Virus record (IMG/VR): IMGVR_UViG_3300028888_000004
Location: 1-64,000 of that record
Reading direction: 5' to 3' (one strand)
From: a virus
Lineage: Duplodnaviria > Caudoviricetes
Length of the DNA stretch: 64,000 nucleotides
Position numbers and translations under genes: made by a program. The notes beneath the pieces are model-generated. The model was not told where the DNA came from, did no database searches, and saw only the letters and a list, made by a program, of their open reading frames with translations. The stretch's first letter is position 1. Every line of letters begins with the position of its first letter. This document shows, piece after piece, positions 24,831 through 41,680 of this stretch.

Positions 24831-27800
24831 ATGGCAAAAGCTAATACAAATCCAATAACTAGTATTGAAACTCCTTGGGAGGGACGTGCTGGTTCTTGTG
24901 TAGAGAGATTTTTAAAAGACCAGCTTAAATCTAAAGTAGGAGCTTCGTATTTGGACAGTAATACTAATATTCTGTACTTCTTTGCTTCTACTGCTGATAG
25001 AGCTTCTTGGCTTGAAGATCCTACACAATCAGAGCTTGTTATATCATCTGCACTTATTAATGTAAACTCTAATTTGGTTTACAGGGTACTCATGACCAAT
25101 AACAATGGAACTACGGATATAAACACTGCAGCAAATGTTCCTGAATTGAATCTATCTATAGATTTTGATGTTCAGTTGTCAACACTTGGTAGTTCTGATT
25201 GGACATCTTCTGGCCAAGGTGTTATCATACGTTGTTACTCAGACCTTGGCTCTACTGGCACATTTACTGAAGTTCCAGTTGATAATAACTTCCTGATAGC
25301 TGGTCAGACATTTACTCTGAATGTCATGAAATACATGGCTCCTGGAACTAATAGATTCAAGGTAGAAATGTATGCGGAGGGCTCAAGTACTACATTTAAT
25401 TCAATTACATACTCTGTCAATGTGTCTGAGATGTATGTTGAATTGATGAACAATACTTGGTATCAGCCAGTTATTGAAGGAAATACATCATCATACAAAC
25501 TTGGTGGATTCAAGGTAGTTGGAGACCTGTCAAAGACTATTCACTTTGATGTTTATGCTGAAGGCTCTAATACTCCTGCAAAGACTTTCACAAAGCTTCT
25601 TGGCTCTGCAACTTATATTGATGCTGCATATAATTTTCTTCCTGCTGATGGTTTTAACCTGTCTGGACTTCAGTCTGGAGAATATAAGGTAGATGTATAC
25701 TTGACATCAGACACTCTTGAATCTACACATGTTACATACAATTTTATGTATGTTACTGCTTCTGATTCAAGTACTGCAAAACTCATTGTTATAAATAATG
25801 TTGCAGATTCTGCATATAACTACACTACTTCTACTCTTTGCCAGTATTCTGTATATAATGGAGGATTGTCTACTGCAGATGTTGATGTTACTGTAGCACT
25901 CACAACAGATGGTGTAAGAGAGGTTAAGGTTGACGATACTTATGAGGGTGTTACAACTGGAGTTCTTAATAACTTCACATACTCTGGAGAAATAAGCACA
26001 GAGTCTACAAACATTACTCTTGATGCTACAATAGGTATTGGAGAAGATGTGGAGTCTATTTCAATGCCATTTGACAACTCTTCTACATATCCTGCAGAAG
26101 CTGGATCAGTATTCTATATGAATGCTTCTACAAGGAATAATGCTCAGACAAACAAAGACAAAATTATAAATCTTGCAAATGACTCTGAGATTACTCCAGT
26201 ATGGAGTAATATTGACTTTGTTGACGGCATTGATGGGTGGACTACTGATGCAAATGGAAGAAAAGCTCTGTTAATTCCAGCAGGAAGTTCTGTAGAGATT
26301 CCTTATCAAGCTCTCTATCATGGTGAAGACACTACATTTGAAATTGCATTCAAGGCTGCTAATGTAGCTGATTATGATGAGAATATCATAACTGTTGCTA
26401 CTAATCCAACTCTTGCAAATTTTGCAGGAATAAGGATTAAGCCGACTAATGTAACTGTACACTCTTATTCAGATACTACTGCTACTAACGATACTGAAAG
26501 AGGTACTAACTTTAGGGATGAGGCTGTCCAGCATTTCCTTCTGTCTATAACTAAGAACTATGGTGGAAACAATGGTAAGAACCTTGTAACTGGATTCCTT
26601 AATGGTTGTAAGGCTTTCCAGTTTGATTATCTCACTGGAACAATCTGGGTTAATAATAGCAACATCAAGATTGGTTCTCAAAAGACTGATATCTATGTTT
26701 ATCTTATCAGATCTTATGAGAAGGCTCTTGGAGCAGCAGCTGCTGAACAGAACTATATTAATTCAATGCCTTCTCTTGAAGACAGAGCAATTACTGCAGC
26801 ACTTTTCCAGAGTGCAATCAATGCCAGCACAAGAGAGATATCCTATGATAAGATGATTGCCGCAAGCAGCACATACAACTTCTTTGTTGTAGATATGCTT
26901 AATGGGGCATCTATACCTTCAAGAGCTAATGGTTGGAGTAAAGACTCTAAGGGATATTCAAACTTTGAAATGCACTTTGGAGAGCACCCTGAGTGGGACT
27001 TCAAGCTTTATAATGTAGAAACTTCTGGTCAGGGTACTACATCTATGGACTACTATAGATGGAATCTCAGATTTAGAATAGATAAGAGCAACGATACCAA
27101 GAAGGTTGATGTTGCTTACTATGATGCTCCTACAACATCTGCTGGTAAGAAGAGATATAATGAGCAGCTACCTACAAGTTCAAAGACTGTATACTTTGAT
27201 GGTGGTGCAAATGGCTCTACTCAACAGCATCCTGCACTTAAGAGAATAACTGCCAAGATTAACATGGCATCCTCAATGCAGTCTCATAAGATGGGTGGAA
27301 CTGGGGCTTTCAATGCTCTGCATGATTATATGGGTCTTCAGAATGAGGCTCAGCAAATAGATCCAACAGTTTCAGTGGCTGTCTATGAGTATCCTGCATT
27401 TGGATTTGCCAAGAGAACATCAGCTACAGGAGTTGACACATATACATTTATAGGTCTGTTTACAATTGGTCCTGATAAGGGAGACAAGCCTACATTCGGA
27501 TATGACAAATCTCCTGAAACCCTTATTTCTCTTGAAGGTACTGATCACTCAAGGAAGATGGCTACATTCTCATATCCTTGGAATAGTGATGTACATTTCC
27601 TTGCTTCAAATGAATGTATTAACATTGTCAAGGGCAATAATGACTATGACAATGGACTTGAAGTAGGAAACTGTCATGACCTTTCAACAGATAAGGCTAC
27701 AGACCAAGCAAGTATTGAACTAGTTCTTGAAGAGCAATTCAAGCCTGCATATAATGTTGCTTTCCAGAATTCTACATTGATATTCCCTATAGCCCTTAAT

Positions 27801-30800
27801 GATGCTATTTATGGGGCTTCAACGGCAGCAGGAGTTCTTGCAAATATCAATGCAAACAAGACTGCGTTCCTTGCTACACAGTACAATAGTAGACTTACTT
27901 ATGCAGCAATGCAGTTCTGGATTGAAGGTGAGTATACTTTGTATTACTATGATATTGTGGCCAATGAGTTCAAGCCAGATATTAATCTTGTAACACAGAA
28001 TGGTGCTCCAACAGGTGCTACCCTTAATGAGCAAAATGAGTGGTTTAAGACTCAAAGAAGAAACAGGTTCAAGAGTGAAGCGCCTAATTATTGGGATATT
28101 CAAGACTCTATTTTCCATCTTTGCTTCTTGGTTATATTTGGAGCTACAGATAACTTTGCAAAGAACTCTTATCCTTATAAGATGGCACTTCTTGCAGATG
28201 ATGGTAGATGGAAGTGGAGACAAGATGACCTTGATACAATATTTGATATTGACAATACTGGCAGCCAGACAAAACCTTACTATATTGAGTATCTTGATAC
28301 TGCTAATGGATCAACATACTTTGCTGGTTCAGTATCTGCATTCTGGAACCTTCTTTATGAAGCTTTCTGGAATGACTATGGCACATCAATGGGTATAGAA
28401 TCCTTTGGTAAAGCCATGCTTAATGCAATGTCTGCACTTGCCAATGGTGCCAATGTCAAGGATGGATGTGTGGCGTTTATGAAGAAGTACTTCTGGGATA
28501 AAGCTCAAGAGTATTTCCCTGCTTCAACATACAACATTGATGGCCAGTTCAAGTATGAAACTGCTTGGCTTACAAATGGACAGAATGTTAATCCTTTGAC
28601 TCAGTCACTAGGAAACCACTATGAGGCTGAAATGCTTTGGGTTGAAAGAAGGGTTATATATGCGATGTCTCTGTTTAAGGCTGGTCCTTTTGGCCTATAT
28701 TCAGACACTTCCCTTGGAACTATAATGTTTGATAGGCCTTATAATCTTCCTGAAGTTAAGGTAAAGCCTATGATGTGGATATATCCTGCATTTATCGAAG
28801 GTGCTGGATCTCCTACAACTACATCTAGGACAGCTCCTGGTGAAGTTAAAACATTTATTGGACCATTTAGTACTGAAGGTCAAACCAGAACATATATTCA
28901 GGCCACTAATCAACTTTCTGAGCTTGGTAACTTAAAAGACCTTATACTTGCTCAAGGATATACTAATCCGATTCAAGTTAATGGTAAGAAACTTCAGAAA
29001 TTTGAAATAGGATATGATTCAACTGTAAACAGTTCAGATGCTGGATATGTTGCACCAAAGACAAATGTCCCTGGACTGTCATTCCCTGATAATCCTTGTT
29101 TGGAGCAGCTTTATGCAAAATATGCATCCTCACTTACAGGTTATCTTGACTTGACTAATCTTCCTAGACTTAAGGAGGCTATTCTTGGTGGCACATCATT
29201 CACCCAAATAGCATTTAAGGAAGGTAGTAAGATAGATACCATAGAGCTTCCTGACACTCTTGTTTACCTGTGGCTGTCTAATCTTCAGCATATTGAGACA
29301 ATTACTCTTCCTGCAGACCTTTCATCTATTGTTTCTCTTAAGCTTGAGAATTGCGATACCATTAATGCTCTTCAGATATTCAAGGATATCTATGATGCAA
29401 ATGGAGATCTTAAGTATATAAGACTTAAGTGGAATGAAGAAATAAGTACAGGTAAGAGTATTCTTGATGTTCTTCAGAATATAGCTAATAATTCTATTGA
29501 GGAAGTTGGGTCTGAGACTGGATACGGTGGAATAGATGCATCTGGAAATGCCACTGAGCATCCTTACATTGAAGGCACTCTTACTACTTCTGACACTGTT
29601 ACAGCTAATCAGGTTTATGATGTTGCCAAGCAGTTCCCTGAACTTAATATTCAGATACCTGATAGCCAGCAGTATATCGTCTTTGAAGATCCTGAAGTAG
29701 AGAGGATATGCCTTGCTAATTATGATACCAATAGTGATGGAGTACTACAGTTAGGTGAAGCAAAGGCGGTGACTTCACAGGTCTTTGGTAATACTGTTTT
29801 TAGAGGAAATACAACTATTGAAACATTTGATGAGCTTAAATATTTTACCGGCATGAATCACATGCCTGGTTCATCAAATTCTGCACAAGGCCCTTTTAGT
29901 AATTGTACTTCTTTAAAGACAATAACCTTACCGTCATCTATAACTAATGTTGGGCATAATTACGGTTGTAGTTTCTTTGGTTGCACAGCATTGGAAGAGG
30001 TAAAGAATTTTGGCAATGTTACAAGTATAGGATACGGCAGTTTCCAGAACTGCACTTCCTTAAAATCAATAGATTTGAGCGGTGTTACAATGTTTGACCG
30101 GAGCGGTGCTTTCTATAACTGCTCATCATTGGCAATAGAGCTTAACATGCCTCGATTAATGGGATGGGAAGGGAACAGCACTGATAGCACCTTTTACAAC
30201 TCTGGTATTACAAAGATTATTAATCTTGGTTCAACTGTAAGCCTTCCAAATACTACATTCAAAAACTGTAAGTCCCTTACTGAAGCTCATCTTCCAACTA
30301 CACTTACTACTATAGGCAATGACTGCTTTAGTGGCGACACTGCTCTTACAACTGTTACAGGATGTGAAAATGTTACTAGTATAGGTAATTATGCTTTCGC
30401 GTGCGGTTCAATTTCAAATTCATCACAAGAAAGACCAGGACATTTGGAATCTGCAGATTTTGACTTTAGTAAAATAACATCTATTGGTGAAAATGCATTT
30501 CAAGGGCAGAGACTAGATGGCATTATAAATGCTCCAAATCTGACTTTTTTAGGCAATGGTGCATTTCATGCTAATAATATTACTAAGGTTCAGAATCTTG
30601 GTTTAATAACTACGTTAAACACTTCTACTAGTACGGATAGTGGAATATTTAAATTTTGTACAAACCTTACAGAAGCACATCTTCCATTGACTGTAACAGA
30701 AATAGGCAATGGAGATTTCATGGCTTGTGCTCAGTTGGAAACCATTGATGGGTGGGATAACATAACATCAATTAAAACTTATGCTTTCAGTTATTGTCAC

Positions 30801-31334
30801 CAACTTGTAAATATTACAATTCCAGAAAAAGTAGAATCACTCGGCACGAACGCTTTTTCACATTGTAATAATCTTACAACTATTTCGTTACCTCAATCCT
30901 GTACTAGTATAGGACAGGAGTGTTTTGTAAACAGTCCTATTACCAATATAAATCTTGAATATATCGAACAGTTAGGCTCATATAATTTTAGAGGCAATAC
31001 TACTTTTAGCGGGCCAGCTATCATGTCTTCGGTAGTAAGTATTAGTACCGGGTGTTTTAGGAATTGCACCTGTGAAGAATATACAATAGGGCCAAATTGT
31101 ACATCTATAGGTAATTACTGCTTCATTGAACCTGTTGGTAGTAAAAAAACTGTTAAAATTTTAGCTACTACTCCTCCTACTCTGGGTGGTTCTAGTGTTT
31201 TTAATACAGGTAATACTACGGTAAAAATATATGTTCCTTATGGATATGCCAGTACATATCAAAGTGCTACTGGTTGGTCAGCATATGCATCAAAGATTCA
31301 AGAGCTTGATGAAAACGGTAATATTCCTGAATAA
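24831..31334 (+). CDS. giant fibre protein with CotH-kinase-like domain and BspA-type leucine-rich repeats
   Basis: DNFAKN/DDLDT motifs; C-terminal xxIGxxAFxxCxxL repeats, ATTPPTLG..IYVP..Y..W cap. Confidence 0.85.
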   Translation: MAKANTNPITSIETPWEGRAGSCVERFLKDQLKSKVGASYLDSNTNILYFFASTADRASWLEDPTQSELVISSALINVNSNLVYRVLMTNNNGTTDINTAANVPELNLSIDFDVQLSTLGSSDWTSSGQGVIIRCYSDLGSTGTFTEVPVDNNFLIAGQTFTLNVMKYMAPGTNRFKVEMYAEGSSTTFNSITYSVNVSEMYVELMNNTWYQPVIEGNTSSYKLGGFKVVGDLSKTIHFDVYAEGSNTPAKTFTKLLGSATYIDAAYNFLPADGFNLSGLQSGEYKVDVYLTSDTLESTHVTYNFMYVTASDSSTAKLIVINNVADSAYNYTTSTLCQYSVYNGGLSTADVDVTVALTTDGVREVKVDDTYEGVTTGVLNNFTYSGEISTESTNITLDATIGIGEDVESISMPFDNSSTYPAEAGSVFYMNASTRNNAQTNKDKIINLANDSEITPVWSNIDFVDGIDGWTTDANGRKALLIPAGSSVEIPYQALYHGEDTTFEIAFKAANVADYDENIITVATNPTLANFAGIRIKPTNVTVHSYSDTTATNDTERGTNFRDEAVQHFLLSITKNYGGNNGKNLVTGFLNGCKAFQFDYLTGTIWVNNSNIKIGSQKTDIYVYLIRSYEKALGAAAAEQNYINSMPSLEDRAITAALFQSAINASTREISYDKMIAASSTYNFFVVDMLNGASIPSRANGWSKDSKGYSNFEMHFGEHPEWDFKLYNVETSGQGTTSMDYYRWNLRFRIDKSNDTKKVDVAYYDAPTTSAGKKRYNEQLPTSSKTVYFDGGANGSTQQHPALKRITAKINMASSMQSHKMGGTGAFNALHDYMGLQNEAQQIDPTVSVAVYEYPAFGFAKRTSATGVDTYTFIGLFTIGPDKGDKPTFGYDKSPETLISLEGTDHSRKMATFSYPWNSDVHFLASNECINIVKGNNDYDNGLEVGNCHDLSTDKATDQASIELVLEEQFKPAYNVAFQNSTLIFPIALNDAIYGASTAAGVLANINANKTAFLATQYNSRLTYAAMQFWIEGEYTLYYYDIVANEFKPDINLVTQNGAPTGATLNEQNEWFKTQRRNRFKSEAPNYWDIQDSIFHLCFLVIFGATDNFAKNSYPYKMALLADDGRWKWRQDDLDTIFDIDNTGSQTKPYYIEYLDTANGSTYFAGSVSAFWNLLYEAFWNDYGTSMGIESFGKAMLNAMSALANGANVKDGCVAFMKKYFWDKAQEYFPASTYNIDGQFKYETAWLTNGQNVNPLTQSLGNHYEAEMLWVERRVIYAMSLFKAGPFGLYSDTSLGTIMFDRPYNLPEVKVKPMMWIYPAFIEGAGSPTTTSRTAPGEVKTFIGPFSTEGQTRTYIQATNQLSELGNLKDLILAQGYTNPIQVNGKKLQKFEIGYDSTVNSSDAGYVAPKTNVPGLSFPDNPCLEQLYAKYASSLTGYLDLTNLPRLKEAILGGTSFTQIAFKEGSKIDTIELPDTLVYLWLSNLQHIETITLPADLSSIVSLKLENCDTINALQIFKDIYDANGDLKYIRLKWNEEISTGKSILDVLQNIANNSIEEVGSETGYGGIDASGNATEHPYIEGTLTTSDTVTANQVYDVAKQFPELNIQIPDSQQYIVFEDPEVERICLANYDTNSDGVLQLGEAKAVTSQVFGNTVFRGNTTIETFDELKYFTGMNHMPGSSNSAQGPFSNCTSLKTITLPSSITNVGHNYGCSFFGCTALEEVKNFGNVTSIGYGSFQNCTSLKSIDLSGVTMFDRSGAFYNCSSLAIELNMPRLMGWEGNSTDSTFYNSGITKIINLGSTVSLPNTTFKNCKSLTEAHLPTTLTTIGNDCFSGDTALTTVTGCENVTSIGNYAFACGSISNSSQERPGHLESADFDFSKITSIGENAFQGQRLDGIINAPNLTFLGNGAFHANNITKVQNLGLITTLNTSTSTDSGIFKFCTNLTEAHLPLTVTEIGNGDFMACAQLETIDGWDNITSIKTYAFSYCHQLVNITIPEKVESLGTNAFSHCNNLTTISLPQSCTSIGQECFVNSPITNINLEYIEQLGSYNFRGNTTFSGPAIMSSVVSISTGCFRNCTCEEYTIGPNCTSIGNYCFIEPVGSKKTVKILATTPPTLGGSSVFNTGNTTVKIYVPYGYASTYQSATGWSAYASKIQELDENGNIPE

Positions 31335-33486: not shown

Positions 33487-34419
33487 ATGGCAGATGTAAC
33501 CTACATTCCTGATGGAAATCAGGCAAACAACATGCTTCCTTGGATGCTTGCTGGCCAGAACAATGGTGGGCTCTTTGGAGGTAATGGTTGGGGAGGTGGA
33601 ATCCTCGGATTCTTCCTTGGTCTCCTCTTTGGCAATGGCTGGGGAGGATTTGGAAATGGATTTGGTGGCTGGGGTGGAGGCTCTGGTGCTGGATTCCTTT
33701 CAAACCAGCTAAGTAATGACAGTGGCAGAGAGCTTCTGATGAATGCTATCACTTCTCAAGGAGAAGCTGGTAGAGCAGCTACTCAGAATCTTGCTACTGC
33801 TCTTGGGCAGGACTTCAATCTTGTCAATGGAGCTATCCAGACTCTTCAAGCAAGTCTTTCTACTCTTGCTCTCCAACAGGCTGTTTCAGTTCCTCAAATT
33901 ATCAACTCTATTCAAGCAGGTGATGCCTCTCTTCAGGCAAAGCTCTGTGAGTGCTGCTGCGAGAACAGACTTCTCACCACACAGCAAGGCTATGAGTCTC
34001 AGATTCGTACTCTTGAGCAAACTAATGCTCTTGGTGGTGCTATTTCTGGTAGTGGCCAGAAGACTGTTGATGCTATTGCTGACCTCAAGACCACTATGGT
34101 CAAAGAGTTCTGCGATGCTAGGGAAAGGGACATGCAGGAGAAAATTGATGGCCTTCTTGCAGCCAATTCTACATTTCGTTCACAAATTGACAACGCTAAT
34201 CAGACAGCAGCCATTACCAGTTATGTTAATGGTCTCGTAAGTCCTATAGCTAAGGAAGTTGATGACATCAAGTGCAGGATGCCTCAGACAGTTCCTGTTA
34301 CTTGGCCAAATCTTGCTGCTGTAAATACCACTCCTTATGTGAGCGGTGGCTACTATCAGGGTGGCTTTAATGGCTTCTATGGTCCTGGTGCTGGTGGTTT
34401 TGGTGGTTTCACTTTCTAA
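33487..34419 (+). CDS. Gly-rich membrane/coiled-coil protein with CECCC motif
   Basis: GWGGG-rich hydrophobic N-terminus, LCECCCENRL, IKCRMP; high-expression codon bias. Confidence 0.85.
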   Translation: MADVTYIPDGNQANNMLPWMLAGQNNGGLFGGNGWGGGILGFFLGLLFGNGWGGFGNGFGGWGGGSGAGFLSNQLSNDSGRELLMNAITSQGEAGRAATQNLATALGQDFNLVNGAIQTLQASLSTLALQQAVSVPQIINSIQAGDASLQAKLCECCCENRLLTTQQGYESQIRTLEQTNALGGAISGSGQKTVDAIADLKTTMVKEFCDARERDMQEKIDGLLAANSTFRSQIDNANQTAAITSYVNGLVSPIAKEVDDIKCRMPQTVPVTWPNLAAVNTTPYVSGGYYQGGFNGFYGPGAGGFGGFTF

Positions 34420-34430
34420 ATCTCTAGACT

Positions 34431-34778
34431 ATGTTTGGATGCAATGTTAATGTAACGACAAATGTCAACGGCATCCCTTACCTCTCCACTAATGGAGTAT
34501 CGGTAACTGCTGAGTCCGTTGACTTTGCACTCGGATTCAGAAGGATACCTAAGATATCAGAGGTAGCCATCCGCATTACTAATGCAATACCTGATGGAAC
34601 TACTGGTACTCTTCCAGTCAGATTCACACTCAATGGTAATACCAGAGAACTCACATTCTTCGGAGGAGATCCTGTAACTGTTGCAGACCTTGCTGGTACT
34701 GGTGTTATTGAAGTATGGTATGACTGGTTCAATGGTATTTTCCAACTTATTTCAGCTCTTGCTCCAGCAACAGCATAG
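34431..34778 (+). CDS. hypothetical beta-rich protein
   Basis: AIPDGTTGTLPV, DLAGTGV. Confidence 0.85.
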   Translation: MFGCNVNVTTNVNGIPYLSTNGVSVTAESVDFALGFRRIPKISEVAIRITNAIPDGTTGTLPVRFTLNGNTRELTFFGGDPVTVADLAGTGVIEVWYDWFNGIFQLISALAPATA

Positions 34779-34801
34779 TTAATCTTTAATAATTCAAAAT
34801 C

Positions 34802-35296
34802 ATGTTTCAAGCGCTTACACAGGGCATGCCCCTTTACATACTGTATAGAAATGAGCCTAGAGTAGATGAGGCAAGAGTTATATCTGTAAATACTCATCCA
34901 CAGCAGGCTACTCCTGCTAATCCAATGGCTATACTTAATGGACCAGTAACAGATATAGTTGTATCTGTTGACGGTAAAACTCTTCCGCCATTTCAAGGAT
35001 TGCAGCCAAGTGCAATGATAGCAACATTCTCTGCAGATGGCATGTTCATAAGTGAGGATAAAAATCTCATTGATAATGAACTAAAATCTATTGAAGACAG
35101 CCATCAAAGAATAGTAGATGGCTATGAATCAAGTAAAGAGATGGTTGAAAAATGTAAGGCTCTCAGACTGAAATTGAATCCAGATAAACAGAAAGAGGCT
35201 GCACATGCACAAGAGATTGCCAGACTTCAAGGTGAGATATCAGAAATGAAGCAAATGCTTATGCAAGCGCTTGGAACTAAATCAAAGGAGGAATAG
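34802..35296 (+). CDS. hypothetical coiled-coil protein
   Basis: MFQAL.QG..YIL...LNP..KE...EI..L. Confidence 0.85.
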   Translation: MFQALTQGMPLYILYRNEPRVDEARVISVNTHPQQATPANPMAILNGPVTDIVVSVDGKTLPPFQGLQPSAMIATFSADGMFISEDKNLIDNELKSIEDSHQRIVDGYESSKEMVEKCKALRLKLNPDKQKEAAHAQEIARLQGEISEMKQMLMQALGTKSKEE

Positions 35297-35299
35297 AAA

Positions 35300-35515
35300 A
35301 TGGGACTTATAAGAATTATGGAACGTGGTGGCGATGATTATCGTGACTACAAGAAGGAACTCAAGAAAGCCAAGAAAGCCATTGATGCTCTCTGTGAAAT
35401 CACTGAAGACATGGAAAATGAGTATGGCTACAGTGAACGCTATAATGAGCGTCATGGAGACTATGAGGATATGGAAGAAAGAGGTGGAAAAAGCTATAGA
35501 AGGCGTTCCATGTAA
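35300..35515 (+). CDS. small charged protein
   Basis: 71 aa, E/R/Y-rich. Confidence 0.75.
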   Translation: MGLIRIMERGGDDYRDYKKELKKAKKAIDALCEITEDMENEYGYSERYNERHGDYEDMEERGGKSYRRRSM

Positions 35516-35522
35516 TCAACCA

Positions 35523-35555
35523 GGGGAGGGCCACTAGCTCTCCCCATTTTATTTT
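35523..35555 (+). terminator. Rho-independent terminator
   Basis: GGGGAGGGC/GCTCTCCCC plus ATTTTATTTT. Confidence 0.75.
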
Positions 35556-35562
35556 GAAAAAT

Positions 35563-35967
35563 ATGAATAGACTTGATTATTATGAGATACTGCCTGCTGG
35601 GATGGAGGCATATCTTGCAGCACATGGAAGACACTTTTCAAAGCCAATGCTTGAATGGGCTGTTGGAATGATGGAAGATAAAGATGGACATAAGGGAGTT
35701 GTAGTTGAGAAGAAGAAGTTTGATGATATAATGAAAGCCTATGGCGTAGAGTTAAAGAGGAAAGATGGCTACTATGATGGGCCTTATGTCTGGGCAATGG
35801 CTAAGAGTGATTACTATGGTACATCAATACTCGATGAACAGCATCTTGCATTGTTTGTAAAAGACTACATTGATGACATAGATGGTAATCATACAAGAGC
35901 ATTTGACGAGTTTTATATCAATTGTGTAGCAAAGGGAATAGACATTCCTTGGGAAGATCTTATTTAG
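35563..35967 (+). CDS. conserved hypothetical protein
   Basis: YL..HGRHFS, MAKSDYYG, DYIDDIDG, IPWEDLI. Confidence 0.85.
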   Translation: MNRLDYYEILPAGMEAYLAAHGRHFSKPMLEWAVGMMEDKDGHKGVVVEKKKFDDIMKAYGVELKRKDGYYDGPYVWAMAKSDYYGTSILDEQHLALFVKDYIDDIDGNHTRAFDEFYINCVAKGIDIPWEDLI

Positions 35968-35969
35968 CC

Positions 35970-36368
35970 ATGATACATGAAAGACTTAAAATAGGCAGAT
36001 GGAAAGTAGACTTTCTTTTTGCTCCTGATGGATATGATACTGAAGAAGCACTTACTTTTTTGTATGATGCAGATGCTTCTGACCACATATTAAGACAGGC
36101 TTATCATATTCTTGAGGATAATATACCCAATACTGGCTTTACTTTTACCAATCAAGAAATGAAAGAAGCTATAGTAGTAATTGGGCCTTCTACCTCTGGA
36201 GATGAATTTATTAATACCCTGTGTCATGAAATGTATCATGTAGCAGCTGCCATAGCTTCTAATTTAGGAGTGTCACTTAGTGGAGAAAAGCCAGCATATA
36301 TAATGGGAGATTCTGTTGAGGAATTAACTAGAATTATATGCAGACTAGGATGTGAAGAATGTAACTAA
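35970..36368 (+). CDS. HExxH Zn-metallopeptidase-like protein
   Basis: NTLCHEMYH...GEKPAY. Confidence 0.7.
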   Translation: MIHERLKIGRWKVDFLFAPDGYDTEEALTFLYDADASDHILRQAYHILEDNIPNTGFTFTNQEMKEAIVVIGPSTSGDEFINTLCHEMYHVAAAIASNLGVSLSGEKPAYIMGDSVEELTRIICRLGCEECN

Positions 36369-36445
36369 GACGTCATATACTAATAAGTTTCTTTTACATC
36401 TCATATAAAAATAATTATTTATTATACCTTTAAATTAATAGTTCA

Positions 36446-36453
36446 TATATTTG
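36446..36453 (+). promoter_or_regulatory. -7 promoter element TATATTTG
   Basis: TAnnTTTG upstream of the fibre cluster. Confidence 0.6.
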
Positions 36454-36480
36454 TATGCGGTCTATTAATTTAAAGGTAAT

Positions 36481-37425
36481 ATGTTTACTAAAAAACAGAT
36501 AGAAGAAATAGCTGCTAAACTGGCTGATTTAGCTATTAAAGACAGCCAGTTTGGCAATATGACTATGCCTCTAAATGGCTCTGAGAATGTTCCTATTCTT
36601 CAAGACAATGAAAATAAGCTACTCTCATTTGCTGAATTAGTAAGTATAGTTAGAGAAAGTGATGAGTCACAATTAGTAAATCTCACTTTGAAAGTAAGCT
36701 GTTCTACTCCAGGAGCCACAATAAAAATTGATGGTGAAATAAAGTCATCCTGTACTGTCTCTTATGGTACAATGGTGGATGTAGAAGTGTCAGCAACTGA
36801 TTATGTGACTTGGTTTGGTACTATAACTGTAACTAGGTCACATTCTATTTCAATTACTCTGAGTAAAGCTGGCAGTGGTTCTGGAGGTGGAGGATCTGAT
36901 GGTCATTGTTGCTGTGGAGACCATTGTGTATGTTGGGATGATGCTGATGATGATCCTAGTACAACTACATATACAGTAACTGTTACTAATCCTAGTGGTG
37001 GTGCTACTCTTATGATTAATGACAGTGCTGCTGCCATGAATAAGGCACATGTATTTAATGCTGGAGACAGAGTAGTCATAGATATAACTAAAGAAGGATA
37101 TTATCCGTATAGCAAGACTATTGACCCTATAAACAGAAGTTATACAATCAATGCCGATGAAGTTCTTGAGCCTATTGACCAAGAAGAGGATAAGCACCTC
37201 AGCTTCACAATTCCTGAGATAAATATTCCAGCAGAAAGCGACTTGACAGCTTATTCAACTGTCGATGCAAGCTCATATATATCTTGGCAGATAAGGTCTA
37301 CATCCCTTCCTGATTATGAAGAAGATACTCCTGGGCAAGATACAGTGGAGCCTGCAATAAGTGTATCTCCTGAAACTATAAGTATGACTGTTGGTGAAAC
37401 AACTAATATTACTATAAAAGCATAA
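36481..37425 (+). CDS. head-fibre anchor-like protein with PEGA-like domains and C-terminal half BACON and half Big_2 domains
   Basis: KDSQF..LNGSENVPILQD N-terminus as in crAss head fibres; ends with incomplete Ig strands. Confidence 0.75.
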   Translation: MFTKKQIEEIAAKLADLAIKDSQFGNMTMPLNGSENVPILQDNENKLLSFAELVSIVRESDESQLVNLTLKVSCSTPGATIKIDGEIKSSCTVSYGTMVDVEVSATDYVTWFGTITVTRSHSISITLSKAGSGSGGGGSDGHCCCGDHCVCWDDADDDPSTTTYTVTVTNPSGGATLMINDSAAAMNKAHVFNAGDRVVIDITKEGYYPYSKTIDPINRSYTINADEVLEPIDQEEDKHLSFTIPEINIPAESDLTAYSTVDASSYISWQIRSTSLPDYEEDTPGQDTVEPAISVSPETISMTVGETTNITIKA

Positions 37426-37427
37426 TT

Positions 37428-38618
37428 ATGGCATATAAATTTAAATCAGAATCTCCTAGTGTAGCAACAGTAACATCCACAGGAAAAGTTACAGGTGTAG
37501 CTACAGGCTCTACTAATATAGTGGTAAGTAATGAAAATGATACTCCTATTGCCAGAATACCTGTAAGTATCTCTAGTCAAAGTAGCGATGTAAGGCCTAC
37601 TGGAATATCACTCAATAAAAGGTCTGTTACTGTGTACACATCTGGTGTTCTTGCCACATTGCAGGCTACAGTTACTCCATCCAATGCTGTAAATAAAACA
37701 GTTACTTGGGAGTCTTTGAATCCAGATATAGTCAGTGTGCATCCAAGATCAAATAACAAGTGTGAAATATGGCTTGAAGAAGGAGCACATTGGGGAGAGA
37801 CCACTGAAAGTAAGACTGCTACTGTAAGAGCTACAAATGCTGAAGGACACTTTGCAGATTGTACAGTAACTATTGGTGTGAAAGGTACAATTATAGATGA
37901 CATCACAGTACTGGATGCTTCAACAAATGCCAGTGGTGAAATTCTTGTTAGTGGAAGCGGATCTACATTTAGGCTTAAGTGTTCTTACCACAATGTAGGT
38001 GATTACTATGGTGGAATTTCTCTTGAGGGTCTTGGTGATAACTTGTCATCATATTATGGAGCCAGAGAGAATGCAGATGGATACACAATAATTCCTATAA
38101 CTGTAAAAGAAAGCTTCTACAAAGAAAGGACTATGACATTTAAGGTTAGAGGTTCTGGAGCAGGAGATTCTTTTACCACATTTACAGTAAGGCAATCTGG
38201 TGGAACAAGCATGTACAGAATCTCTCATCAGAATGCATACTTCGATGCTAATGGAGAACATCATTTTGAAGATGACAAGGGTAATAAATATGACTATGCA
38301 CAAACTCTTGAATATTGGTGCAATCCAGAAGTGAGTAAGTCTATTATAAATGACGCTGCAATTACTTACAGCAGTACTGATGAAGGTGGATGGGTAGGCT
38401 TTAATACAAGTAAGTGGTATTGCTATAAGAGGACTAATGGAAGTATATCCACAATGTCTAATTCAGAGTGGAATTCATTTATACTGAACCCTCCTGCAGA
38501 TACTATGGCAGATTGTTCAATTCCTGTTACAGTTTCAAAGAATACTACAGGCAAAACAAGAACTGCTACTATTGAATTTGATGGAGGAGTTAAGTTCTAT
38601 ATTACTCAAGGTGCATAA
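37428..38618 (+). CDS. Ig-like (Big_2/BACON) protein starting with a half Big_2 domain
   Basis: MAYKFKSESPSVATVTSTGKVTGV; full Big_2; C-terminal NTTGKTRTATI..ITQ. Confidence 0.85.
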   Translation: MAYKFKSESPSVATVTSTGKVTGVATGSTNIVVSNENDTPIARIPVSISSQSSDVRPTGISLNKRSVTVYTSGVLATLQATVTPSNAVNKTVTWESLNPDIVSVHPRSNNKCEIWLEEGAHWGETTESKTATVRATNAEGHFADCTVTIGVKGTIIDDITVLDASTNASGEILVSGSGSTFRLKCSYHNVGDYYGGISLEGLGDNLSSYYGARENADGYTIIPITVKESFYKERTMTFKVRGSGAGDSFTTFTVRQSGGTSMYRISHQNAYFDANGEHHFEDDKGNKYDYAQTLEYWCNPEVSKSIINDAAITYSSTDEGGWVGFNTSKWYCYKRTNGSISTMSNSEWNSFILNPPADTMADCSIPVTVSKNTTGKTRTATIEFDGGVKFYITQGA

Positions 38619-38635
38619 TAGTAAAATTAATTAAT

Positions 38636-40888
38636 ATGACTAATTTATCACCTAATGAAAGTCAATTAGTTGCTACAGGAACTGGAGAAGAGACATTGTC
38701 TCTTTCTGGTTGGGGCACTAATGAGTCTAGGCTCGCTAGGTCTTTTAAATACAGGCTTTACGATGCTGGTAACGTTCAGCAAGACACACTAATTGTTACT
38801 CAAGCAGGAGCAGAACTTGGTATAAGAGTCAATGGAAACGCTTCAAAGTCAGCAACATCAGGCTCTTCATCAGTTACTGTTACCTTTAATGGTTACAGCA
38901 ATGGAAGATATATGAGATTTCAGAATAATAACTCAAGCAGTCAACTTGTAGTTTCGTCTGCTAAAGAGTATTCTGCATCTCAAACTGGAGCTGACTTTTC
39001 AAGCAATTTTACAGAAGTATCGTCATTTGGAAGCTGGTATGAATTTTCTGTTACAGTAAGCATCCCTGCAAATGCAAGTGCTGGTACTTACAGTTTTTCT
39101 GTCTACACATCTGATGATACTTATACCACTCAGTCTGTGACTTACTCAGTAGTTGTCTCTGAATCTGGTGGAGGTGGTGGAGATGATTATGATCCTGTCA
39201 GCTCAATAAGAGTCACCCCTCAATCTGTTGTTCTATCTACAGATTCATCAGCCAGTAATCACACTCAACAACTGAGTGTAGTAATACTACCAGAGACTGC
39301 TGATCAAGGTGTTCAATATTTCAGTGATGATGCAAATGTAGCTACAGTATCTAGATATGGAGGTTTTGTTACAGGTGTGTCTGAGGGAACTTGCACAATA
39401 ACTGCAAGAGCTGATGGAGACTATAATAAATGGGACACATGCGAAGTATCAGTATTTACTCCTAGTTGGATTACTGTTGATGCAATTAATATTCCTGGAT
39501 CTGTAAGTGATCCTTCTGGATCTGGAGCTATTAGAGCGAATAATATTGATCCAGATACATTACAATATCATTACACAAGTGGTTCTGCTCCTGATTGGGT
39601 AAATAGTGTAACTATAGATACATCTAGTTATCCTTACTATCTTAATGTAAGTGTTGATGGAAATGGCACCATTGATAATCCAGGAAGTACAAGAAGCTTT
39701 AGCCTTTATGTTACTGCTGAAGATGAGTTTGGAGAAACTGTATCCAGTGGTTCTGTAGTAGTAACTCAGTCTGCTCCATCTACAGATGATAGGCCATGCA
39801 CAGGTATGAATATCAATTTGTATGATACTACTATAGAAACACCTAATAATTTAGGTGAGTACACATGTGAGTATGTGCCACCAGCAACTACTCAACATCG
39901 TCATACTTGGTATCTTACATACAGAGATGGAAGTGCAAATCCTAGCAGTGTAAGTGAACTTGGCTCTTCTGTACCTAGTAATATAGCAGAAATAGTTACG
40001 GATGACGGTGAACATTCAGAATATGGTCAAACATGTCTCATAAGAGTAAATACTGGTGCAACAACACGCCAGAATTTAAGAGTGTGGGTCATTAATTACT
40101 ATAACTTCAGTGCCAGAGACTACGTAGATGTTGATGCTATTTATGTAGAACCTAATGGAAACATCAGTGCAAATCCTAATCCAGTTACTGTAGGATGGAA
40201 TGATACCAGACAGGATAATACAAACGGTGCTCCTGTTATAACCCTTACAAATATGAGGGATACAGTAACAAATCTTACAGTAACACATACTGGAAGTATT
40301 ACAACTGCTAGTGTTGGAGGCTCAGGAAATACTGGATATGTCATTACTGAATTCCCTGTCAATCCTACTCCTTCAGTTCAGATTGAACTTGGTACAGTTA
40401 CCTTGTCTGGTTATGATGCTGGAGGCACAATGAGAAGTTACACTATATCATATAAACAAAGTGCTCAACCTACAGTACAAAAGAACGATATACAAGTATT
40501 AGCACTTAGTGCATCATTGAATAGTGGAGAATTTGATATAGTAGCAATAGGTAATTTGATAAATAATAAATTTGCTAGTACTACCTTTAACAACATAGTG
40601 TGTAGAGTTGTGGGGTACAACTCAGCAGACCCTACCACAATTATCTCTCAAACTTCAATGAATTTGGATTCAAGCTCTATCACTATGACTGCTTCTGAAA
40701 CAACTCATGAAATAACATTTACTGGAAGAATGTCAGCGACATCGCAGTCATCTTCAGATCACGTAGATGAATTCACAGTTGAAATGTCTGCTTATTCTGT
40801 AGCTGATGGAGAGACTGTTACCGACAGACGTGAGGGTCTTGATGGTACAGATGATCCAAATGATTACTATGATGACGGTACTAATTAA
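38636..40888 (+). CDS. multi-Ig (BACON/Big_2) fibre protein
   Basis: starts with a C-terminal BACON half; SDDANVATV Big_2; several VTQ-ending domains. Confidence 0.85.
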   Translation: MTNLSPNESQLVATGTGEETLSLSGWGTNESRLARSFKYRLYDAGNVQQDTLIVTQAGAELGIRVNGNASKSATSGSSSVTVTFNGYSNGRYMRFQNNNSSSQLVVSSAKEYSASQTGADFSSNFTEVSSFGSWYEFSVTVSIPANASAGTYSFSVYTSDDTYTTQSVTYSVVVSESGGGGGDDYDPVSSIRVTPQSVVLSTDSSASNHTQQLSVVILPETADQGVQYFSDDANVATVSRYGGFVTGVSEGTCTITARADGDYNKWDTCEVSVFTPSWITVDAINIPGSVSDPSGSGAIRANNIDPDTLQYHYTSGSAPDWVNSVTIDTSSYPYYLNVSVDGNGTIDNPGSTRSFSLYVTAEDEFGETVSSGSVVVTQSAPSTDDRPCTGMNINLYDTTIETPNNLGEYTCEYVPPATTQHRHTWYLTYRDGSANPSSVSELGSSVPSNIAEIVTDDGEHSEYGQTCLIRVNTGATTRQNLRVWVINYYNFSARDYVDVDAIYVEPNGNISANPNPVTVGWNDTRQDNTNGAPVITLTNMRDTVTNLTVTHTGSITTASVGGSGNTGYVITEFPVNPTPSVQIELGTVTLSGYDAGGTMRSYTISYKQSAQPTVQKNDIQVLALSASLNSGEFDIVAIGNLINNKFASTTFNNIVCRVVGYNSADPTTIISQTSMNLDSSSITMTASETTHEITFTGRMSATSQSSSDHVDEFTVEMSAYSVADGETVTDRREGLDGTDDPNDYYDDGTN

Positions 40889-40954: not shown

Positions 40955-41680
40955 ATGCCTTCATATTTCACAATAAACCCTTCCTCTGAGACTGGCACTA
41001 AGAATATTACTATTACTGCTCAGCCTAATACAGGAAGAAACAGTAGGTCTGAGACTTTCAAGGCCTATAGCACAAATGTAGCTAATCTTGAATCCTCAAA
41101 TTATCTGATTGTTCATCAAGCAGAAAAGCCAGGATTTCTTGAAGAAGTTGTTCCCAAACCTTCTCCTACAGCTACCGATACTTCTGCAACTTATAATTTC
41201 AAGTCAAATCTTGCAAATATAAAGGTTGTAGCACCCTCTAATCCTACAGCTACTGTAACTGGTGCAACTATATGTGGTGTTCAACTTGATAGTACTAAGC
41301 TTGCTAATCTTATTAGCACATCTGGGTATAATGTTGAAGACTCAAATGGTTCCCTTGATCCCGGAAAATATGCAGAATATAATATAGCTATTACATTTGC
41401 ATTTGATCGGAATCAAGGTCAGACAGACAAAACCTACTCCTTCACAGTAAATGGTACAACATATCAATTTACACAAGGACACACAGAGGTAACAAGAACT
41501 CTTGCATTCTCAAGCTCTATAAGTTCTGATAGAACAGCAGAAGGAATTGAGGTTACACTCAATGCAAGTGGTGCCTATGCTGATGGTGCTGACAGGATTT
41601 TGCAAGTTACTACAACTCCTGCTACAGGTGTAAGCTGGACAATTGATGCAGTAAGCAATGATAATACTGCACTAAGATAG
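40955..41680 (+). CDS. circularly permuted BACON-domain protein
   Basis: starts SYFTINPSSETG..NTGRNSR..VHQ (C-half), ends IEVTLNASG..ILQVTT..SWTI (N-half). Confidence 0.8.
   Translation: MPSYFTINPSSETGTKNITITAQPNTGRNSRSETFKAYSTNVANLESSNYLIVHQAEKPGFLEEVVPKPSPTATDTSATYNFKSNLANIKVVAPSNPTATVTGATICGVQLDSTKLANLISTSGYNVEDSNGSLDPGKYAEYNIAITFAFDRNQGQTDKTYSFTVNGTTYQFTQGHTEVTRTLAFSSSISSDRTAEGIEVTLNASGAYADGADRILQVTTTPATGVSWTIDAVSNDNTALR

Follow-up and report, generated by a model that had tools for sequence, protein, structure and literature searches.

A Big_2 domain cut at a gene boundary in a ruminant-gut crAss-like phage and the probable joining of two tail-fibre proteins through its halves

Two adjacent genes on a 64,000-nucleotide stretch of viral DNA (Duplodnaviria; Caudoviricetes) share a single Big_2 domain, an immunoglobulin (Ig)-like fold, the first part of which is encoded at the end of the upstream gene and the remainder at the start of the downstream gene. 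The stretch, referred to here as the window, comprises the first 64 kb of a 102,496-bp virus record in IMG/VR (IMGVR_UViG_3300028888_000004) that bears direct terminal repeats. DNA nearly identical to the locus is contained in sheep, bovine and rumen gut metagenomes, and the source is a ruminant-gut crAss-like phage; among GenBank phages, blastn found no match to the locus. The two open reading frames (ORFs), ORF1 and ORF2, and the features on which the analysis turns are listed below by nucleotide (nt) position in the window, with lengths in amino acids (aa).

36481..37425, + strand: ORF1, 314 aa, predicted proximal tail-fibre protein or anchor, consisting of a gp22-like N-terminus, a PEGA domain, a second beta domain, a conserved beta segment, an acidic linker and half of a Big_2 domain
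36481..36645, + strand: gp22-like N-terminal segment of ORF1, about 55 aa, homologous to residues 1-56 of crAss001 gp22
37348..37422, + strand: C-terminal tail of ORF1, aa 290-314, corresponding to Big_2 strands 1-2 and proposed as donor hairpin from the profile match and the model of a fused homologue
37423..37430, + strand: junction, with the TAA stop codon, a 2-nt spacer (TT) and the ATG of ORF2; a run of four A residues (A4, 37416-19) lies just 5' of it
37428..38618, + strand: ORF2, 396 aa, predicted distal fibre protein, consisting of the second half of the Big_2 domain, an intact Big_2 domain, a middle beta region and a BACON-like C-terminus
37428..37577, + strand: first 50 aa of ORF2, with the five strands of the split Big_2 domain that ORF1 lacks; proposed acceptor
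37596..37877, + strand: second Big_2 domain of ORF2, intact, about aa 57-150, which matches that of 7quz

The ORF1 protein ends with the residues VGETTNITIKA, after which TAA occupies 37423-25. ORF2, with the N-terminus MAYKFKSESPSVATV, is read in the -1 frame relative to ORF1; upstream of its ATG this frame is open only from 37407 (YYYKSII), which results in a 21-nt overlap with ORF1. The PEGA domain covers ORF1 residues 69-127 and scores 25.8 bits in Pfam against a cut-off of 20.8, the conserved beta segment is marked by F242, S265, W269 and I271, and the BACON-like C-terminus of ORF2 scores below threshold. PEGA, Big_2 and BACON-like domains are of the types typical of glycan-binding phage appendages. 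In the Gly-rich linker that follows PEGA, ORF1 carries a Cys-rich insertion, DGHCCCGDHCVCW (aa 139-151, 36895-36933), which is missing from relatives of about 35% identity and is found in the closest relative, locus L012; it might bind metal or clasp fibre chains together by disulfides. In L012 an in-frame TGA (L012:443-445) occupies the position of the third Cys of the CCC run in the window (..DCC*PNGRCVCW..), as a result of which the gene caller broke the ORF1 homologue into two. The TGA could reflect an error, a broken gene, TGA recoding or selenocysteine.

The division of the domain was recognized by comparison with the Pfam profile of Big_2 (PF02368). ORF2 residues 4-33 match positions 37-66 of the 79 profile positions and no others, so ORF2 begins in the middle of a domain. 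When the last 25 aa of ORF1 and the first 50 aa of ORF2 were strung together, the resulting artificial concatenate gave a Big_2 match in one stretch, from position 5 to position 66 of 79, at 31.3 bits (E 2e-7; gathering cut-off 22.8 bits). Gene coordinates, profile coverage and the match of the joined halves thus agree with the preliminary description of this DNA, made from its letters alone, which had placed a Big_2 domain cut at the gene boundary between 37345 and 37580. A second statement of that description, that the halves together resemble the intact Big_2 domain later in ORF2, did not hold: the pairwise score was 28, below the mean of 33.9 obtained with shuffled sequences. The Big_2 assignment therefore relies on the profile and on the homologues. 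A homologue search with ORF2 residues 1-56 retrieved the cluster of the protein itself and, beyond it, only four weak Big_2 proteins and was uninformative as to how widespread the split is.

How the cut relates to the fold was examined in an AlphaFold2 (AF2) model, built on an alignment of six sequences, of P0004, a homologue in which both parts are fused. The junction domain of P0004 is a seven-strand sandwich (strands 276-281, 284-286, 296-300, 306-309, 312-315, 319-327 and 333-342), with means of the confidence score pLDDT between 70 and 87 for 10-residue blocks over residues 271-340. Strands 276-281 and 284-286 correspond to the tail of ORF1 and the strands within 296-342 to the head of ORF2. 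The equivalent of the cut site (residues 289-294) is the loop between strands 2 and 3. A cut at this position would leave ORF1 with a two-strand hairpin and ORF2 with five strands. From the profile and the model we infer that ORF1 carries a C-terminal hairpin and ORF2 a sandwich that lacks those strands.

A domain that is cut by a stop codon just behind an A run could in principle be the work of a sequencing or assembly error, or of a recent mutation that has made a young pseudogene of one gene; a single additional A, converting A4 to A5, would join the two frames. Contigs from four runs of four different studies were therefore compared over 36400-38700. In each study a contig bridges the junction without a gap (records 1, 4, 8 and 15). 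The bridging contigs differ by 2-27 substitutions elsewhere (about 0.3-1.4%), none of those listed lying between 37347 and 37478; no sequencing indel is present in the contigs of the four independent studies. The distribution of the substitutions is informative as well. Among the 40 listed strain differences, with 57 further ones outside that list, the synonymous and non-synonymous changes number 25 and 3 in ORF2 and 7 and 5 in ORF1. The ratio in ORF2 indicates strong purifying selection on its frame, and the variants point to translation of both frames. Moreover, the closest relative is cut at the same loop, yet its genes are separated by a spacer of 10 nt and its ORF2 has an offset of +1. 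An artefact or an inactivated gene is accordingly an extremely improbable explanation, already near refutation.

The relatives of the two genes occur in a fused and in a split form. An exhaustive phmmer search across 1.84 billion representatives revealed two length classes of ORF1 homologues, one of about 660-710 aa and one of about 258-300 aa, the latter only 35-45% identical to ORF1. The longer homologues, such as P0003 (712 aa) and P0004 (697 aa), are colinear with ORF1, the junction and then ORF2; six fused homologues of 663-712 aa (P0003, P0004, P0014, P0015, P0018 and P0025) are colinear through the junction. Locus L002, which encodes P0003, has the gene order of the window with one gene in place of two (proteins of 308, 114, 164, 67, 134 and 161 aa, the fibre gene, a Big_2 protein of about 700 aa). 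An alignment-based search for related loci found only L014, a fused form of 697 aa, and searches of IMG/VR for related loci with P0001 or P0002 singly found no relatives. Every short protein that was inspected ends a few residues past the same strand, 'vG..t.q.'.

For eight further split loci of about 35-55% identity (L004-L009, L011 and L012), the DNA could be compared. In all eight, ORF1 stops at the same loop (TAA in seven, TAG in L011), followed by a spacer of 0-20 nt that consists only of A and T and then by the ATG of ORF2, the protein of which opens after the initial Met with the motif '..y.s.nPsvAtV..nG.vt....G.t.i'. The homologues are thus not all fused, and the split, the conservation of which the preliminary description had left to be examined in relatives, is kept at the same loop. 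What is not kept is the relation between the frames. With the window included, the nine loci have spacers of 2, 20, 12, 20, 4, 10, 6, 0 and 10 nt and ORF2 frame offsets of -1, -1, 0, -1, +1, +1, 0, 0 and +1. In L004 the ORF2 frame opens 3 nt ahead of its ATG, 17 nt past the ORF1 stop, and does not overlap ORF1. In L011 the TAG of ORF1 abuts an in-frame ATG without a spacer (L011:3368-3373), and the neighbouring genes end with TAA.

In a maximum-likelihood tree of the ORF1 part, with seven split and six fused rows, the two forms are interleaved. The best tree takes three state changes and the well-supported branches force at least two between fused and split; the branch of the window is long, so that its exact placement is unsure. 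The pairs L005/L006 and L008/L009 share the split and are deeply diverged from each other. Despite its separation from the rest of the domain, the tail of ORF1 shows, at the level of sequence, no decay. In split forms the pairwise identity of the tail is 0.27 and the BLOSUM62 score 1.20 per column, compared with 0.19 and 1.00 for the same tail in fused forms; the acidic linker next to the tail reaches 0.20 and 0.69. Ten ORF1 proteins of the split type all share G305, with V304 close to invariant.

The genomic setting of the fibre gene differs among relatives. In the window, L002 and L004 it follows a conserved block of six genes for proteins of about 310, 115, 160, 70, 135 (DUF7841) and 133-161 aa (33487-36368 in the window). 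The portal gene immediately precedes the fibre gene in L005 and L007; in L011 a single gene, for a 238-aa protein, separates the two.

The comparison of the split loci also bears on the alternative that the preliminary description had considered, a programmed -1 ribosomal frameshift. Slippage on A_AAA (37416-19) would add, at a low level, a fused protein of about 712 aa beside ORF1. The -1 frame is indeed open for 21 nt ahead of the ORF1 stop, tRNA-Lys could in principle re-pair on A_AAA, and the product would be colinear with the fused homologues. As the same description had noted, the open -1 frame is not accompanied by a canonical slippery heptamer: in the 21-nt overlap no X_XXY_YYZ sequence is present in the zero frame, only A_AAA. 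No stimulatory RNA structure was found 3' of the junction (minimum free energy -17 kcal/mol, z -0.45; 64 of 200 shuffled sequences fold equally well). More telling are the relatives cut at the same loop, in which neither the frame relation nor the overlap with ORF1 is conserved. Offsets of 0 and +1 occur along with -1, spacers reach 20 nt, and each ORF2 starts at an ATG of its own that follows an A/T-only spacer. Since offsets and spacers vary and L004 lacks an overlap, frameshifting cannot be the mechanism of the family, and for the window it is rejected as a very unlikely addition. Independent initiation of ORF2 on A/T-rich leaders, the usual start context in Bacteroidota, can account for the pattern of the split loci. 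Two other ways of obtaining a fused product from the window were discarded. Readthrough of the stop codon does not lead into ORF2, which lies in another frame, and the zero frame past the TAA soon meets a TAG. Transcriptional slippage requires a longer run than A4.

Because fused relatives carry ORF2 as a linear continuation of ORF1, ORF2 would be the distal part of the same fibre. The preliminary description had proposed an orthogonal joint by which a side-branch adhesin is attached to the anchor. Of this proposal, reassembly in trans stands as the best explanation of the data; the side branch is not supported, given the linear order in the fused forms. We consider it probable that the locus encodes a real two-gene tail fibre in which the hairpin at the ORF1 C-terminus supplies the missing strands of the Ig-like domain at the start of ORF2, and reassembly of the two Big_2 halves in trans is, on the sequence comparisons and the models, the most likely fate of the split domain.

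The events can be envisaged as follows. The gp22-like N-terminus of ORF1 would, as homology suggests, seat the protein in the tail hub, and its C-terminus would form a two-strand beta-hairpin equivalent to strands 1 and 2 of a Big_2 domain. Translation would end at the TAA at 37423 and restart at the ATG at 37428, the short A/T-only spacer suggesting coupled and roughly equimolar synthesis of the two proteins. ORF2 would start with the remaining five strands, into which the ORF1 hairpin inserts such that the beta-sandwich becomes complete. The composite Big_2 domain would then join the anchor non-covalently to the distal part and make one fibre of two chains. The distal part, with the second Big_2 domain, the middle domain and the BACON-like end, probably binds a glycan of the host or of mucus. 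The cut would lie in a loop at the surface, where the domain can be either continuous or interrupted, and lineages have switched between the two states more than once.

Binding of the two proteins was examined by complex prediction with ORF1 residues 228-314 and ORF2 residues 1-152, on alignments of 7-10 sequences made for this analysis. The interface score ipSAE was 0.40, 0.42 and 0.40 in three runs, as opposed to 0.00 in all three controls, with contact agreement of at least 86% and a partner pLDDT of at least 75. In the calibration of the score, 58 of 80 solved complexes and 2 of 110 mismatched pairs attained the pass mark; at an ipSAE of 0.60 or less, only 7 of the 80 solved complexes did so, together with both of the passing mismatches. 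A prediction of the AlphaFold-Multimer type for the two halves had been suggested in the preliminary description; the present one gave weak support. It makes a small addition to the case for predicted binding of ORF1 to ORF2, and halves of a split known fold may pass such a prediction by their likeness to known folds.

Several points weigh against reassembly in a two-chain fibre. The complex score falls where passes are more often wrong than right unless binding was likely beforehand, the underlying alignments of 7-10 sequences are shallow and no interface was returned, so that a strong prediction of ORF1-ORF2 binding was not obtained. The AF2 model of P0004, however well its junction domain is formed, is poor as a whole, with a mean pLDDT of 57.5. 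The contigs leave room for a minority variant in which the genes are fused, and L011 would be a fused gene if its phage decodes TAG as an amino acid.

The weakness of the computed support would also suit an arrangement in which the split is real and the halves stay apart. The tail of ORF1 would then be a tolerated remnant or serve another role, and ORF2 would attach elsewhere or act alone with an incomplete first domain, as Ig-like domains can sometimes bear the loss of edge strands. This is unlikely for several reasons. All nine loci, the deeply diverged L005/L006 and L008/L009 among them, are cut at the same loop, and the two genes are always adjacent, 0-20 nt apart. The tail, with its invariant Gly, is at least as conserved in split as in fused forms. 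From what is generally known of the Ig fold, loss of two of seven strands would lay bare the core of the beta-sandwich.

The place of ORF1 at the base of the fibre is deduced from its N-terminus. A profile built from the N-terminal 65 residues of 36 members of the family aligns with crAss001 gp22 over residues 1-56 (E 3e-12, 34.9 bits); of the five crAss001 proteins tested, the other four (gp21, gp23, gp24 and gp29) gave no match. In the virion of crAss001, gp22 is a trimeric tail-fibre protein, residues 1-26 of which sit in the collar of the tail hub; the trimer is docked in the THA2-THB hub, as shown by the structure obtained with cryo-electron microscopy (cryo-EM), and carries further, unresolved fibre proteins (PMC10172136). 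By this homology ORF1 most likely docks in the tail hub, and it is the only protein encoded by the genome with a gp22-like N-terminus. In the representative library the module of about 55 aa (36481-36645) heads more than 30 architectures, from 69 to more than 1300 aa in length; judged by this distribution, it is an exchangeable hub adaptor.

The 750-aa and 241-aa proteins encoded downstream start (38636-38830 and 40955-41140) with a motif that resembles the second half of a BACON domain (..G.G...l.i......R...f.....l.vtQ), as do their counterparts from L002, L004, L005 and L007. The head of the 241-aa protein matches positions 13-61 of the 61 positions of Pfam BACON at 23.4 bits, under the cut-off of 25. 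The designation of the Big_2 joint as a second, orthogonal joint on the same anchor presupposes a BACON joint of this kind, and it was not borne out: in a single quick test, Pfam returned no hit for a fusion of ORF1 residues 239-270 with the head of the 750-aa protein. Further upstream (24831-31334), a 2167-aa protein matches the PHROG families of unknown function phrog_24896 (E 1e-91) and phrog_14959 and is, by these matches, probably another large appendage protein.

Literature searches brought up no paper that describes a Big_2 domain split between adjacent phage genes, and searches on split Ig domains, donor strands and gene fission in phage fibres yielded nothing relevant; a 2026 paper on gut-phage adhesins (PMC13370021) had no passage on split domains among the parts reached by keyword. 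What the present case contributes is a predicted Big_2 version of an inter-chain joint, an upstream partner that is a gp22-type hub anchor, and a comparison of fused and split forms in which the varying frame offsets remove the frameshift reading. A more general proposal, for and against which the chances seem to us evenly balanced, is that the B-C loop of Big_2 is a plug-and-socket connector of crAss-like fibres. The hairpin at the end of a hub anchor would lock onto the five-strand acceptor of a separate distal adhesin, coupled translation would aid assembly, lineages would alternate between one gene and two, and with two genes distal receptor-binding modules could be exchanged as whole units, a general and as yet undescribed rule of fibre building. 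If the halves reassemble, the attachment partners of crAss-like fibre proteins could be read from sequence by a simple rule; the cryo-EM study of crAss001 left fibre attachment open because the fibres were too flexible to model. Annotation would improve, as the split genes would be neither pseudogenes nor frameshifts, and merging them or marking them as defective would be wrong. The joint would mark points at which host-range modules are swapped and offer protein engineering a small natural pair of split-domain halves. The coexistence of fused and split orthologues supplies a ready-made experimental control.

Completion of an Ig-like fold by another chain is known from chaperone-usher pili and from the type V pili of Bacteroidia, in which strands of the neighbouring subunit complete an incomplete Ig-like fold and form a very stable non-covalent joint. 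The proposed ORF1-ORF2 joint resembles this donor-strand complementation in that strands from another chain complete the fold. In pili a single C-terminal (G) strand is missing, which in the chaperone-usher type comes from an N-terminal extension of the next identical or related subunit, many identical subunits are joined, and a chaperone together with an usher or a protease is required. Here, by contrast, the N-terminal strands 1 and 2 would come from the C-terminus of the preceding protein, at a single heterotypic joint; no chaperone, usher or protease is evident, genes for chaperones and ushers not having been searched for.

Programmed frameshifting can append Ig-like domains to phage structural proteins, of which the 10A/10B type of T7 is an example. 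The present locus is similar in having a Big_2-type domain where the reading frame changes at the end of a structural gene. It differs in that the offset varies among relatives, a slippery site is lacking, the cut lies inside the domain and ORF2 has its own start. With crAss001 gp22, an 832-aa protein annotated as polygalacturonase or tailspike, ORF1 shares the homologous N-terminal 55 aa; past the N-terminus the two are unrelated, and a Big_2 split is not described for gp22.

The most similar arrangement is found in the baseplate tripod of the Lactococcus phage Tuc2009, where a C-terminal hairpin of 25 residues of BppU completes a beta-sheet of domain 2 of BppA to form a composite, titin-Ig-like domain (PMC4742702). 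In both systems the C-terminal hairpin of one protein of the adhesion device completes, or in the present case is predicted to complete, the beta-sandwich of its partner. In the crAss-like phage the completed domain is the N-terminal domain of the product of the next gene, its fold is Big_2, host phylum and phage type are different, and fused orthologues exist; the joint is predicted, that of Tuc2009 solved. Homology to BppU or BppA was not apparent: phmmer searches of the PDB sequences with P0001 and P0002 gave no phage fibre or baseplate protein, nothing useful being retrieved with P0001 and only a generic Big_2 with P0002. The BppU-BppA pair of Tuc2009 is, by analogy, the closest solved precedent, which works alike without belonging to the same family.

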